DNA from: Bdellovibrio sp.
GTDB lineage: Bacteria; Bdellovibrionota; Bdellovibrionia; Bdellovibrionales; Bdellovibrionaceae
DNA length: 64,000 nt
Assembly (NCBI GenBank): GCA_036676395.1
Contig: JAKFCY010000002.1
Coordinates: 224,001 to 288,000 of the forward strand
Direction of reading: 5' to 3'
A program made the position numbers and the translations under genes. Under the pieces are notes generated by a model. The model did no database searches. It was not told the DNA's origin and worked only from the letters and a program-made list of their open reading frames with translations. Shown here one piece after another: positions 55,067 to 59,070 of this stretch; the first letter of the stretch is position 1, and each line of letters opens with the position of its first letter.

Positions 55067-55396
55067 TTAGCCTCGGTCAGTCACCATTTGCTGATAACCG
55101 CCATCAATTAGATAGACGTTTGTATAACCTTTTTTTTCTAAACTATTCGCGATGCGCTCAGATTGCTTGCCATCAGGGCATAATAATAAAAGGGCAAAGT
55201 CTTTGGGGATCTTGCGGTCGTCTAATTCTTGCTGGAGCTGGCTTTCGGTAGTCATGACCTGCCAAGCTTCGACATGCATTTTTTGAATCGAAGAATACCA
55301 AGGGGCAATATCGGTTCCAAAATTAAAGAACATAAAGGGAACGCGGTTTTCGATCAGATTATTTAATTGGTAATAGCCGATTTTATTAAAACTCAT
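55067..55396 (-). CDS. Rhodanese-like domain protein
   Basis: LLLCPDGKQS and GYTNVYLIDGG motifs. Confidence 0.8.
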   Translation of the reverse strand: MSFNKIGYYQLNNLIENRVPFMFFNFGTDIAPWYSSIQKMHVEAWQVMTTESQLQQELDDRKIPKDFALLLLCPDGKQSERIANSLEKKGYTNVYLIDGGYQQMVTDRG

Positions 55397-56622
55397 ACGT
55401 TTACCTTTTTCGCATGATCTGGAAGATCTTTAAAAATCATAAAAATAATCGTTAATGCAAATAACGTGAAAGCACCAGCCAATAAAAATGGAGATCCTTT
55501 GAACGCGCTTTGTAGCAAAAAGCCGCCAATCGGTGGCCCAATGACTCGGCCTAACGCCGATAAACTTTGCGTGGTTCCCATAGCTAAGCCTTGTTCTTCT
55601 GGCGGAACAAGAAGTGAAACACTTCCCATAAAGGCAGGGTTTGTTAAGCCGTGACCTAACGATAACAGCGTCATCGTAATACCCATCGCCGGAATACTTG
55701 GTGCAAATGCAATTCCTGCAAGCCCTAAACCTAATAAAAGTAACCCCAGGCAAAGAACTTTCTTTTCGCCCACTTTAGGTAAAAGACGGCGCACTAAAAA
55801 GCCTTGCGTGAAAACAATGATTACGCCGATATAAGCAAATCCAAAACTGACTTCTTTGATGTTCCAGTTAAAAATTTCTTTCATGTACAGCACCAAAGAA
55901 GATTCCATTAAAGCCATCGCCAGTGTTGCTAGCGCAAAGCAGGTCATCAGGGGGCCAACAGTTTTGGTTTTAAAATAACGAGCTAAGTGTGATAGCTTTT
56001 TTTGTTTTTCAGCGCTGTTCTTAGCGCGTGTTTCTGGGCTGATAGATTCTTTTAAATTAAAGTAAGCAAAAATAAATGTAAATAAACACAATAAAGCTAC
56101 GCCGAAAGAAGAAAAGCCTGCGATAAAGCCCATGTCTGTAGACATTGTCTCGGCCCAAATAGTTAAGCCGCCACCGATCGCTGGTCCGAATAAAAATCCT
56201 AAACCAAAAGCAACGCCGATCACGGCCATACCTTTAGATCTATTTTCTGGAGTCGTCACATCTGAAACATAAGCCGATGCGGTTGAGATTGAAGCTCCGA
56301 AAAAACCGGTTAAAATACGCGCAACAAAAAGCATTTCTATTGAACGCGAATAGGCCAGTACCAAATAAGAAATCATTTCGCCCAAAAGGCAGTACATTAA
56401 AATAGGTCTGCGGCCGTAGCGATCTGATAGTTTTCCCCAAAACGGAGCAAAGATAAATTGCATCAATGAGTAAGACGCCATTAGTAAGCCCGCGATCCAA
56501 GGGGTTGCGCCGTAGTGAACACTTAAAAGCGGAATCACTGGAATGATCATTCCAAAACCTAAAAGGTAAATGAAAACTGTGAAAAATATTACGATAAGTG
56601 GTTTTGAATTTGGGTTGCTCAT
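55393..56622 (-). CDS. MFS transporter, TetA/DHA1 family
   Basis: WGKLSDRYGRRP motif A, GF..GPAIGG motif C, about 12 TM helices. Confidence 0.92.
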   Translation of the reverse strand: MSNPNSKPLIVIFFTVFIYLLGFGMIIPVIPLLSVHYGATPWIAGLLMASYSLMQFIFAPFWGKLSDRYGRRPILMYCLLGEMISYLVLAYSRSIEMLFVARILTGFFGASISTASAYVSDVTTPENRSKGMAVIGVAFGLGFLFGPAIGGGLTIWAETMSTDMGFIAGFSSFGVALLCLFTFIFAYFNLKESISPETRAKNSAEKQKKLSHLARYFKTKTVGPLMTCFALATLAMALMESSLVLYMKEIFNWNIKEVSFGFAYIGVIIVFTQGFLVRRLLPKVGEKKVLCLGLLLLGLGLAGIAFAPSIPAMGITMTLLSLGHGLTNPAFMGSVSLLVPPEEQGLAMGTTQSLSALGRVIGPPIGGFLLQSAFKGSPFLLAGAFTLFALTIIFMIFKDLPDHAKKVNV

Positions 56623-56686
56623 ATTAGCCGATCTAGACCTTTGTCTTCTGCTTTTCATATATAAACTCGGTTACACTGGTGTGGCT

Positions 56687-57889
56687 ATGAAAAAAACATC
56701 AAATACACTGCGTTCTAAGATTAATTTTGTCGTCTTAACGATGACACTTTTTTCAACTGCTCAAAGCTGGGCGTTTTTTGATCCCTATCAGGTGTATCGC
56801 CAGCAAAGATTCGATTTGGCCGTAGATGCCCAATTTTATAAAACCACAGCCAATTTTGATTCAGGTGGTGAAAAAATCGACTTACCTTTTGAAAATAGCT
56901 TTCAAATTATCGATGTGAATCCCCAATTACGCTGGGGGATGTTTCGTGACCTTGGGGTTCGTTTAGGCACTAACATTGGTTCTTCTGAATCCGTTGACCC
57001 AATTAATACACGCAATAATTCTACCGTAAATCGTGTCGATGTCGGTGCCGATTACCAATTATTAAATTATGAATCTTTCCAAACGATCGTCGATTTTGAA
57101 TATTCTCATCCTATGGAAAAAGTCGACGTCGCTACTGATTCTTCATTAAACAGTAACGGGGCTTCTGAAATTAAACCAACGCTGATCATGAGAATGGATT
57201 TAGGAAGTTTTTATCCGTACGCTTATTTGGGCGCAAACATTCGCAATGAAGGCTTATCAACATTATTAACTTATGGTGTGGGCGGGGAATTTCGCTTTTC
57301 AGAATTAGGATTAGGCGCCGTTGTTGAAGGTTTTAGTTCTGTTAAAGATGATGAATTCACTAATTCAGCTTCACGCCGTGATTTAATCACGACACGAGTG
57401 AATGGTGGCAGTAAAAAGTTTTATTCAATTAATCCAAATGCATTAGCCGCAGAAGTATTTTTAAATTTTGCGATGACAGAATGGATTAAGTTTAAAGCTT
57501 ACGGTGGAGCGGATGTAACAGGGTCAAATACCTCACAAGGATTTTTTGTCGGTGGTGCGCTGACATTGACTCTTGATTATGGCAATGGCAGTGATGATCT
57601 TGAAGAACAACGTGTGATTCGTCGTTCGCAGCGCCCGGCAAAGAAAGTAAAAAAACCAGTCGATAACGGTTTCAAAGAAAGCACTGATGATGGCGTAGAT
57701 CAAAATTATTTTAAATCTGTAGATCCAAGTAATGATGATTACGTGCAACCCATTGAAGAAGAAGAACAGCAGGCAGTACCCCAAAATGGAACCAGTTCTA
57801 GTGTTAATCCAAGTACACAAGGCGATTTGGATCAACTCGGTTACCAAATCAAATTAAAGAAACTTAAAAAGAAAAAGAAAAATCAGTAG
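56687..57889 (+). CDS. Putative outer-membrane beta-barrel protein with an acidic then poly-Lys tail
   Basis: Signal peptide (…QSWA), alternating amphipathic strands, disordered C-terminus. Confidence 0.7.
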   Translation: MKKTSNTLRSKINFVVLTMTLFSTAQSWAFFDPYQVYRQQRFDLAVDAQFYKTTANFDSGGEKIDLPFENSFQIIDVNPQLRWGMFRDLGVRLGTNIGSSESVDPINTRNNSTVNRVDVGADYQLLNYESFQTIVDFEYSHPMEKVDVATDSSLNSNGASEIKPTLIMRMDLGSFYPYAYLGANIRNEGLSTLLTYGVGGEFRFSELGLGAVVEGFSSVKDDEFTNSASRRDLITTRVNGGSKKFYSINPNALAAEVFLNFAMTEWIKFKAYGGADVTGSNTSQGFFVGGALTLTLDYGNGSDDLEEQRVIRRSQRPAKKVKKPVDNGFKESTDDGVDQNYFKSVDPSNDDYVQPIEEEEQQAVPQNGTSSSVNPSTQGDLDQLGYQIKLKKLKKKKKNQ

Positions 57890-57905
57890 GACGCTTCGTG
57901 GCTAT

Positions 57906-57933
57906 TTGCCACAGTAGCCTTTCTTATTACAAT
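57906..57933 (+). promoter_or_regulatory. Sigma70-type promoter
   Basis: TTGCCA-16 nt-TACAAT. Confidence 0.6.
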
Positions 57934-58006
57934 CATAACAAAATAAATAATGACAAGTTTTATAAGCCTTGATAGCTTGTCTCTATTCTATTGAAAGGAG
58001 AATCAC

Positions 58007-58090
58007 ATGATTACAAATATTAATACGCACGCCTTAGAGCAAACATTAGCCGTCGAAATGTCCGATTCTCCTATGGCACATCAATTCTAG
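58007..58090 (+). CDS. 27-aa small ORF MITNINTHALEQTLAVEMSDSPMAHQF
   Basis: AAAGGAG SD 6 nt before ATG; the SD is complementary to GATTCTCCT inside the ORF. Confidence 0.4.
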   Translation: MITNINTHALEQTLAVEMSDSPMAHQF

Positions 58091-58259
58091 CAGTCTTGCC
58101 AGAATACAAAAGAGAATCCAAACAAATTTAAAGAATGAATCGCGATAATTAACATTATCGTCAAAGCTCATTGTGGCTTTTTCATTCTAAAATTTCAAAA
58201 AAACAGATCAATTATTTTTATTTAACCGCACTCGGAAACGAGGGCAAAAAGGATATTTT

Positions 58260-58511
58260 ATGAAAAATGCTAAAAATTATTTAGCAGTGTACGAAAATTG
58301 GGAAAACTCAAACGCGGAGGAGCTTTGGCGCCTTTGGAAAAGCGTTCTAAAGTGTATTAGCCTGATCGCTTACTCATTTCACGCTATCGTGAAACTAGCG
58401 ATCGGGTTTTTATTAAATTCTAATTATTTAGTTAAGCACAACGAATTCGGAAAACTACCAGAAGAAATTTCTGGTAGTTTTTCTAACAATCAGAACTGGT
58501 ATCGTAACTAA
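58260..58511 (+). CDS. 83-aa hypothetical ORF, doubtful because it overlies strong RNA helices
   Basis: AAGGA SD; no recognisable motif. Confidence 0.3.
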   Translation: MKNAKNYLAVYENWENSNAEELWRLWKSVLKCISLIAYSFHAIVKLAIGFLLNSNYLVKHNEFGKLPEEISGSFSNNQNWYRN

Positions 58512-58534
58512 TACCAGTTCTGATTTCTTTTTTT
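58488..58534 (+). terminator. Intrinsic terminator
   Basis: Perfect 15-bp stem AATCAGAACTGGTAT / ATACCAGTTCTGATT followed by TCTTTTTTT. Confidence 0.85.
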
Positions 58535-58584
58535 ATGTCGGACAAGGGAGGGACGATGAAGTATGTATTTTATTTTTGTAAGAA

Positions 58585-59070
58585 CTATTCCAGATCCATG
58601 TTTTGCATGCGCATTTTCGGCATGTAAGTTTCAGCTTGTTCTAATAATGACAAGTGGGCCTGAGCCATGGCTTTAAGATTGGCTTCGAATTGCATTCTTG
58701 ATTTTTTAAGATCAGAAATTTCAGTGTAGATTTTACGTAAAGAATCTTTTGCATCACAAGTGATTGTTTCTGCCTTTTGTTGGGCCTCAGCAATGACTAA
58801 TTTGCATTCGTGTTCTGCTTCTTGTTTCATTTGATCTGATAACTTAGTCGCTTGCGTGATAGCGCTGCGTAAGACATTATCGCGATCACGAAATTCGTGA
58901 AGCTGTAATTCTTTTTCTTTAAGTTCTTCAGTTAGTGTTTGAATTTGTTGTGCAAGATTTTCAGTTTGCGCAGCAATAATCGTCAGAAAATTCACAACTT
59001 GTTCAGGATCAAAGCCCATCATCTTGCGATCAAAGGTCTTATTGATAATCTCAGTTGGGTAAAATTTCAT
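58585..59070 (-). CDS. divIVA: DivIVA domain protein
   Basis: P.EI.NKTF.RKMMGFD.EQV..FL N-terminus plus coiled coil; GGAGG SD. Confidence 0.92.
   Translation of the reverse strand: MKFYPTEIINKTFDRKMMGFDPEQVVNFLTIIAAQTENLAQQIQTLTEELKEKELQLHEFRDRDNVLRSAITQATKLSDQMKQEAEHECKLVIAEAQQKAETITCDAKDSLRKIYTEISDLKKSRMQFEANLKAMAQAHLSLLEQAETYMPKMRMQNMDLE

Follow-up and report, generated by a model that had tools for sequence, protein, structure and literature searches.

A probable self-contained messenger RNA with two small genes and a selected RNA fold in a subclade of Pseudobdellovibrio

We analysed a 64-kb window (64,000 nucleotides of Bdellovibrio sp. contig JAKFCY010000002.1, by which all positions below are numbered) in which the 695-nucleotide (nt) gap between an outer membrane protein (OMP)-like gene and divIVA contains a structured unit. 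We consider it likely that this region is a self-contained mRNA of about 600 nt (~57940-58534, + strand) that carries two small genes, the open reading frames (ORFs) ORF1 and ORF2, and whose RNA fold is selected as well. A preliminary description of the same DNA had interpreted the region as a candidate large non-coding RNA (ncRNA), selected for its structure rather than for an 83-amino-acid (aa) ORF, here ORF2. The unit does have the look of a stand-alone structured transcript, as was then proposed, but two coding frames are conserved; given the coding evidence for ORF2 and for ORF1, which had been overlooked, the object is not a large ncRNA but a structured mRNA, or a dual-function RNA at most. 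Also missed at that time were the nature of the helix 57996-58004/58064-72, which pairs the Shine-Dalgarno sequence of ORF1 (SD1) with a complementary stretch (the anti-SD), and the exposed Shine-Dalgarno sequence of ORF2 (SD2). By sequence and by covariance model the unit appears to be an orphan without known family, and it most resembles structured messages for small membrane proteins.

A protein search found ORF2 open and free of stops in seven of the 52 genomes of the genus. Its length is 83-84 aa in all seven orthologues, and the sole indel among them is one codon (3 nt), with the frame kept in 7/7. The ratio of nonsynonymous to synonymous substitution rates (dN/dS, Nei-Gojobori) lies between 0.10 and 0.31 in 17 between-clade pairs; the OMP-like gene and divIVA of the same genomes have values of 0.04-0.11 and 0.03-0.08, respectively. 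Variable columns follow codon position, at 0.41-0.54 for third, 0.26-0.33 for first and 0.16-0.23 for second positions. In a collection of 5.8 billion proteins 17 clusters correspond to ORF2, all with 74-100% identity and 82-93 aa long, one of them named 'hypothetical protein'; a profile search of 1.84 billion representatives matched three proteins, among which is a 91-aa relative with 45% identity that keeps the motifs YLAxYxNWE, LLNxNYLV, LPEE and NQNW. With the frame kept, a low dN/dS, a codon-position bias and a 45%-identical relative bearing the same motifs, the proposal of selection for RNA structure instead of for ORF2 is not supported, and ORF2 is a real gene under purifying selection. 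Canonical Shine-Dalgarno sequences precede both ORFs at the correct spacing.

The hydrophobic peak of the ORF2 protein (19-residue window, residues 33-51; Kyte-Doolittle 1.80) is consistent with a single membrane-spanning segment, and an AlphaFold2 model built on an 18-row alignment consists of one long helix spanning residues 2-63 (mean pLDDT 76.8). A complex prediction for the two proteins together scored 0.00, which gives no verdict and was used neither way. The 148-aa protein P0018 has its first 42 residues in common with ORF2 and is unrelated thereafter; a frameshift or rearrangement in a copy, or an assembly join, may account for it.

The evidence for ORF1 is of a similar kind. From ATG to TAG it spans 84, 84, 96, 126, 108, 96 and 99 nt in the seven genomes, in every case a multiple of three, and across these five different lengths no orthologue has an in-frame stop, whereas the other two frames hold one to six stops each. 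The product is an acidic peptide of 27-41 aa whose N-terminus is kept and whose end reads ..SP(M/K)(A/S)xQF-stop in all orthologues; the mid-section varies freely in sequence and length, and the alignment is too gapped for dN/dS. ORF1 thus looks like a gene, or at least a translated frame. Part of its C-terminal conservation is that of the anti-SD itself: the 27-codon ORF1 begins shortly after SD1 and its last codons hold the anti-SD, at which an Asp-to-Gly change (GAT>GGT) in genomes G016 and G067 keeps a U.G pair with SD1.

A comparison with dinucleotide shuffles, which the preliminary description had suggested, gave a fold far better than chance. With RNAfold the + strand of 57935-58534 reaches -160.2 kcal/mol, against -112.1 +/- 5.7 kcal/mol for 100 dinucleotide shuffles, none of which was as good (z -8.44); the - strand of the same region gives a z of -5.66. 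The seven orthologous units have z values of -5.3 to -8.95, with 0/25 shuffles as good in each. Inside ORF2 we used synonymous-codon shuffles, which preserve the protein and its codon composition, and the native minimum free energy (MFE) was below 100/100 of them for every one of the seven orthologues (z -3.1 to -4.4). Applied as a control to five neighbouring genes (18 windows, each of 252 nt), the test gave a mean z of -0.01 (range -2.62 to 1.94). These comparisons argue for an RNA fold that is selected on top of coding and that reaches into ORF2. The + strand is taken as the folded one because, among 448 cells in conserved helices, G.U outnumbers A.C by 29 to 7, in agreement with the earlier remark that G-U pairs favour this strand.

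All the helices that had been listed previously, including the stems within ORF2, can be read in the sequence where they had been placed (Table 1). This holds for the three-way junction with both of its enclosed hairpins, for the CTCG-GAAA-CGAG hairpin of the GNRA type, for a 13-bp stem that we delimit as 13-15 bp, and for the 15-bp terminator with its T run. The helix 58332-39/58345-52 is likewise present, with 89% of its cells paired, but it displays no covariation and overlaps an alternative helix. When each orthologue was folded separately, the SD1/anti-SD helix, the closing helix of the junction, the CGATAAT hairpin and the hairpin ahead of SD2 were recovered in 7/7, and so was the terminator. 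The 5'-proximal hairpin H1 is in the MFE structure of five of the seven, being unpaired in G041 and folded otherwise in G052. The 3' arm of the junction's closing helix has the variants TCATTCT, TCGTTCT and CATTCT; the second arm of the junction is variable, and five species have an additional (third) hairpin. Two long-range helices suggested by RNAalifold were set aside: that of columns 12-18/373-379 would fall upstream of the likely start site, and that of columns 63-69/321-326 competes with the junction helix found in all single-sequence folds.

Covariation was assessed for eight helices named on the alignment, from the pre-SD2 hairpin to the terminator (64 pairs). Standard pairs fill 93.7% of their 444 cells, a share that drops to 30-46% once the partners are displaced by 1-3 columns; double-sided changes occur in 9 of the 64 pairs, against 0-5 after displacement; and the covariation score of 0.167, against <=0.073 after displacement, is reached by 0/500 shuffles. 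The pre-SD2 hairpin is kept with differing stems (CTCG/CGAG, CTCTG/CAGAG, GCTT/AAGC, TTCG/CGGG), one of its pairs being changed on both sides, and the terminator has 3/13 pairs so changed. In the central ORF2 hairpin 100% and 97.6% of cells are paired over the seven sequences, with one double change and several one-sided changes to G.U. The penultimate hairpin is the most telling with respect to the overlap of fold and codons. It is kept in 7/7 with differing stems and shifted registers (3/8 pairs double-changed), the stem being ACTACCAGAA/TTCTGGTAGT, GCTACCG/CGGTAGC, GGCTGC/GCGGCC or GCTGC-AGA/TCT-GCAGC according to lineage. Its 5' arm encodes a conserved (K/R/E)LPEE and changes only synonymously, and its 3' arm encodes variable residues (ISGSF, INGSY, ICGQY, ICSNY) that track the changes of the 5' arm. 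The terminator's 5' arm is made of the last ORF2 codons (NQNWY), with the ORF2 stop codon in the loop. ORF2 has a lower synonymous rate (dS) than the OMP-like gene in 21/21 genome pairs and than divIVA in 15/21, pairs that are not independent of one another. Outside the helices several single-stranded blocks and loops are near-invariant, for example ACAAAATAAAT after the -10 element and ATTTTTATTTAACCG before the pre-SD2 hairpin.

The best-defined element of the leader is the helix 57996-58004 AGGAGAATC/58064-72 GATTCTCCT, which the preliminary description had already noted and which has 9 perfect pairs. It is paired 8/8 in the MFE structure of all seven orthologues, in each of which SD1 is the best duplex partner of the anti-SD (-14.6 to -15.9 kcal/mol). 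The downstream look-alike GAGAATC is the second- or third-best partner in 6/7 (-9.3 to -10.3 kcal/mol) and could possibly serve as an alternative one. By comparison, SD2 has 0-3 of 7 nt paired in the seven orthologue folds. A further SD-like sequence, GGAGGAG, lies inside ORF2 at 58317-58323 (codons AEE); it is kept in 6/7 orthologues, with AGAAGAG in G041, and in 5/7 it ranks within the top four duplex partners of the anti-SD (-9.6 to -10.7 kcal/mol). Over the leader as a whole (57985-58188) seven short, mutually complementary segments recur, three of the AGAAU type (SD1, GAGAAUC and AAAGAAUGAA) and four of the AUUCU type (one ahead of SD1, one in the anti-SD, CAAUUCUAG at the end of ORF1, and one in the 3' arm of the junction), and these could form alternative helices.

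Several points weigh against the interpretation as a two-gene mRNA with a selected fold. Only seven orthologues from some four lineages were at hand, and the shuffle control ignores their relatedness, so the covariation counts rest on few events. Third positions vary less in stems than in loops (0.41 vs 0.54), a difference that is not significant (Fisher p=0.27). Within the close trio G016/G067/G062 the ORF2 dN/dS is 0.18-1.0, from three pairs with just 1.5-5.5 synonymous differences. The AlphaFold model of ORF2 is a lone helix with a pTM of 0.39; neither ORF matches a family in Pfam (E<=1), NCBIfam, PHROGs or PADLOC, and the ESM Atlas gave no usable match. The RNA-library contigs described below tell neither strand nor transcript ends, and DNA may be present in libraries of this type. 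Finally, the roles in message stability and translation pacing that we propose for the helices are ones we infer.

Table 1. Features of the structured unit and its flanking genes in the window
Feature	Position	Strand	Remarks
OMP-like gene	56570-57889	+	439-aa ORF; name from appearance only, no Pfam/NCBIfam match
Promoter, sigma-70-like, TTGCCA-16-TACAAT	57906-57933	+	Consensus scan, 10/12 matches
Hairpin H1, 5'-proximal, GACAAGTT/AGCTTGTC	57952-57981	+	Arms 57952-57 GACAAG and 57976-81 CTTGTC
SD1, ORF1 Shine-Dalgarno sequence AAGGAGAATC	57995-58004	+	6-8 nt ahead of ATG; invariant in 7/7 orthologues
ORF1, 27 aa, MITNINTHALEQTLAVEMSDSPMAHQF	58007-58090	+	27-41 aa among orthologues
Anti-SD GATTCTCCT	58064-58072	+	Within the final codons of ORF1; 9 bp with SD1
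SD look-alike GAGAATC	58112-58118	+	Candidate alternative anti-SD partner
Multi-helix junction	58132-58188	+	Closing helix AGAATGAA (58132-39)/TTCATTCT (58181-88); interior CGATAAT/ATTATCG (58143-49/58154-60) and AAAGC/GCTTT (58163-67/58176-80)
GNRA-type hairpin, GCACTCG-GAAA-CGAGGGC	58228-58245	+	Directly upstream of SD2; CTCG-GAAA-CGAG at 58231-42
SD2, ORF2 Shine-Dalgarno region AAAAAGGA	58246-58253	+	Mostly unpaired in folds
ORF2, 83 aa	58260-58511	+	Coding region carries five conserved hairpins
Central ORF2 hairpin AGCCTGATCGCT/AGCGATCGGGTT	58359-58408	+	Nested TTCACG/CGTGAA
Penultimate hairpin	58449-58483	+	Within ORF2 codons KLPEE/ISGSF; stem 13-15 bp
Intrinsic terminator	58488-58534	+	15 pairs at 58488-58525, then T run (consensus scan)
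divIVA	58585-59070	-	Pfam DivIVA, E 2.4e-32

The promoter that had been proposed for the unit is present. Its -10 element and the next 20 nt are nearly invariant in the alignments of the seven orthologues, the A-rich leader that follows is invariant, and transcription would start at about 57940. A sigma-28-type promoter around TAAAGAAT...CGATAA was rejected after the alignment was read, since its spacing differs between orthologues. As for the upstream neighbour, if the OMP-like gene is read as its longest ORF, from 56570, it overlaps the beginning of a divergent MFS-type gene (55393-56658, - strand); relatives of the OMP-like gene match an internal start, MKKTSNTL, at about 56687.

Sequences near-identical to the unit occur in four metatranscriptome runs (X1-X4). 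A 432-nt RNA-library contig of a close relative corresponds to 58004-58422 and thus holds ORF1, the spacer and part of ORF2, and the three other runs hold parts of this; such a bridging contig is consistent with co-transcription of ORF1 and ORF2, without proving it. The three differences within ORF2 all fall at third codon positions and are synonymous by codon reading. In these runs no contig lies on 56500-58003, a stretch with the OMP-like gene and the predicted 5' leader, or on 58443-58588, and divIVA is represented only by a 164-nt piece in X1. The contigs end at 58004, 58006 and 58016 on the left and at 58422-58442 on the right; since inverted repeats interrupt contig assembly and this stretch was the criterion by which the runs were chosen, nothing is drawn from them about transcript ends or expression. 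The metatranscriptome relative (runs X1, X2 and X4) has a 14-nt insertion directly past the ORF1 stop (58090), and G018 has a different 14-nt insertion within the junction; as both frames are intact in these cases, the spacer tolerates indels.

Among named records the unit is carried by Pseudobdellovibrio sp. HCB154 and 'Bdellovibrio sp. qaytius', and these records identify the genus as Pseudobdellovibrio. Searched at the DNA level, 41 related genomes yielded the region in G018 (95% identity) and, as two pieces, in G016 (82%), and three more genomes gave only 25-37-nt matches with E about 1e-4. An ORF2 profile search of 401 genomes of the phylum had matches in this genus alone, bar one 38-residue match (E 2.3e-4), and did not find the family in 26 genomes of genus g17, which by guess is Bdellovibrio. 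A scan of JGI metagenomes yielded no further orthologues. The unit was not found in viral contigs or by a phage blastn search, which leaves a phage origin unsupported, and it is single-copy, for a DNA search of its own genome returned the locus and one 33-nt chance-level match, with no REP-like spread.

The OMP-like gene is present in 47 of the 52 genus genomes, and the seven carriers of the unit are exactly the genomes whose OMP-like protein is at least 81% identical, the next best being 53%. In non-carriers the OMP-like gene and divIVA are convergent, separated by 44-168 nt or by another gene: G055, G057 and G006 have a gene of 236-242 aa there, and G007 and G048 have nothing (44-168 nt). 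At this site G003 is without an OMP-like gene; G018 and G052 have a lipoprotein-like gene (221 or 187 aa) between the unit and divIVA. Judged from these arrangements, the gap is a variable insertion site and the unit a lineage-specific insert of one Pseudobdellovibrio subclade. The position beside divIVA, noted in the preliminary description, is incidental, because a gene intervenes in G018 and G052 and the OMP-like gene and divIVA adjoin without the unit elsewhere; the unit is linked to the 3' end of the OMP-like gene, with no functional tie to divIVA.

With regard to known RNAs, Rfam at gathering thresholds returned 0 matches in the 64-kb window, and in E-value mode its top hit, rli41, had 20.7 bits where 55 are required, the others being mostly terminator look-alikes. 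ARAGORN found no tmRNA or tRNA. The preliminary description had seen no tmRNA, RNase P, SRP or 6S signature in the transcript. merRNA is an RNA of the c-di-GMP-riboswitch type. As a structured stand-alone transcript of a predatory bacterium in the same phylum, the unit is like the attack-phase ncRNAs of B. bacteriovorus, merRNA included (Karunker et al. 2013, PMC3627812). It is unlike merRNA in that it has no Rfam match and its ORF2 family had no match in the g17 genomes searched. Leader-peptide attenuators based on an upstream ORF (uORF), of the ermCL, tnaC and mgtL type, share with the unit a short uORF with strong initiation, conservation of the peptide's C-terminus and of the context of its stop codon (..SPxxxQF-TAG-CA) and repeated AGAAU/AUUCU segments with potentially mutually exclusive helices. 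The unit differs from them in that SD2 is open in every fold, a scan found no inter-ORF terminator, tell-tale regulatory codons are missing and the spacer is 169-245 nt long.

Type I toxin mRNAs with a leader ORF and Shine-Dalgarno sequestration are known from hok/mok/sok, AapA1/IsoA1 and TisB/IstR, and a module of this sort, in which ORF2 (or ORF1) would be a membrane-active toxin encoded by a silent, stable mRNA and countered by an antisense RNA from the - strand, is an alternative that we regard as unlikely. The points of resemblance are a small protein whose model is one long helix and which has a single hydrophobic segment; a compact mRNA, extremely structured and likely to be stable; a ribosome-binding site sequestered by a distant complementary stretch, here an anti-SD; a short upstream leader ORF; and the narrow, patchy distribution of an orphan, clade-restricted intergenic insert at a variable site. 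Weak promoter-like sites are also present on the - strand at two alignment positions in 6/7 orthologues (8-9/12 matches). Yet one defining feature is absent, as the occluded Shine-Dalgarno sequence belongs to the upstream peptide ORF1 and that of the candidate toxin ORF2 is open, and ORF1 and ORF2, which do not overlap, are separated by 169-245 nt. Typical type I toxins have 19-60 aa, so that ORF2 with 83 aa is longer, and the unit is single-copy. The Hok, Ldr, Fst and TisB toxin families are modelled in Pfam, and neither ORF has a match there or in the other family collections named above. The - strand promoter candidates, for their part, are weak and lie inside sequence already constrained by coding or hairpins, the G.U pairs favour the + strand, and an antisense antitoxin transcript is a candidate only.

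Even less probable, in our judgement, is a dual-function regulatory RNA of the kind of Staphylococcus RNAIII/hld, SgrS/SgrT or SR1/SR1P, in which base pairing or protein binding would be the main role and the small peptides an addition. Like the unit, such RNAs are transcribed on their own, measure 0.2-0.6 kb, fold into numerous conserved hairpins, encode a peptide close to the 5' end and combine structural with coding constraint in the same sequence. The unit, with its ~600 nt, a short ORF in its 5' third and a double 3' hairpin followed by a U tail, resembles RNAIII in these respects. Structure is conserved beyond coding needs, the loops and single-stranded blocks mentioned above (ACAAAATAAAT and ATTTTTATTTAACCG among them) are near-invariant, and the unit was found in RNA-library contigs. 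However, these contigs give no abundance, a regulatory target or pairing region is hypothetical, there is no Rfam family match, and the unit has two ORFs, the larger of which fills 42% of the RNA and is under purifying selection, which indicates that its coding role is not vestigial. As to a pure ncRNA with both ORFs accidental or untranslated, the reading offered by the preliminary description, the strong fold z-score, the conserved helices and the failure of either ORF to match a protein family would agree with it. We nevertheless find it scarcely credible, for both frames stay open in 7/7 through indels in multiples of three, dN/dS is well below 1 with codon-periodic variation, the 45%-identical protein homologue keeps its amino-acid motifs, and correctly spaced, canonical Shine-Dalgarno sequences stand ahead of both ORFs.

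If the unit is indeed a structured mRNA with two small genes, we propose that it would work as follows. SD1 is locked by the anti-SD in the final codons of ORF1 itself, which would make ORF1 translation self-limited or ribosome-gated: ribosomes could load on ORF1 only before the anti-SD has been synthesized or while another ribosome melts the helix. The downstream SD look-alike may then take over as partner of the anti-SD. ORF2 would be translated from the open SD2, directly behind the covarying GNRA hairpin, on a long-lived mRNA. H1, the junction, the hairpins of the coding region and the double 3' hairpin would together provide a protected message and a paced translation of the membrane protein. 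There is also an outside chance that the unit is the predator-lineage counterpart of RNAIII or of type I toxin messages, a long-lived folded RNA that would combine two proteins with a regulatory fold acting by leader-peptide sensing or RNA pairing.

The listings and abstract openings of the literature on Bdellovibrio exovorus small RNA, on Pseudobdellovibrio and on Bdellovibrio ncRNA and transcriptomes contain nothing on this element; if it is true that the RNA has a role in regulation or toxin control, it would, as far as those listings and openings extend, be the first such element described in the group. For annotation, gene callers would overlook an ORF of 27-41 aa, and the region might be recorded wrongly as an ncRNA. 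The unit represents a natural case of overlapping constraints, in which the codons of a small membrane protein are such that its message keeps five hairpins, and in which variable C-terminal residues of ORF2 co-change with synonymous sites in the opposite hairpin arm. It is of relevance to the origin and control of small-protein genes and to the nearly unexplored RNA biology of predatory bacteria.

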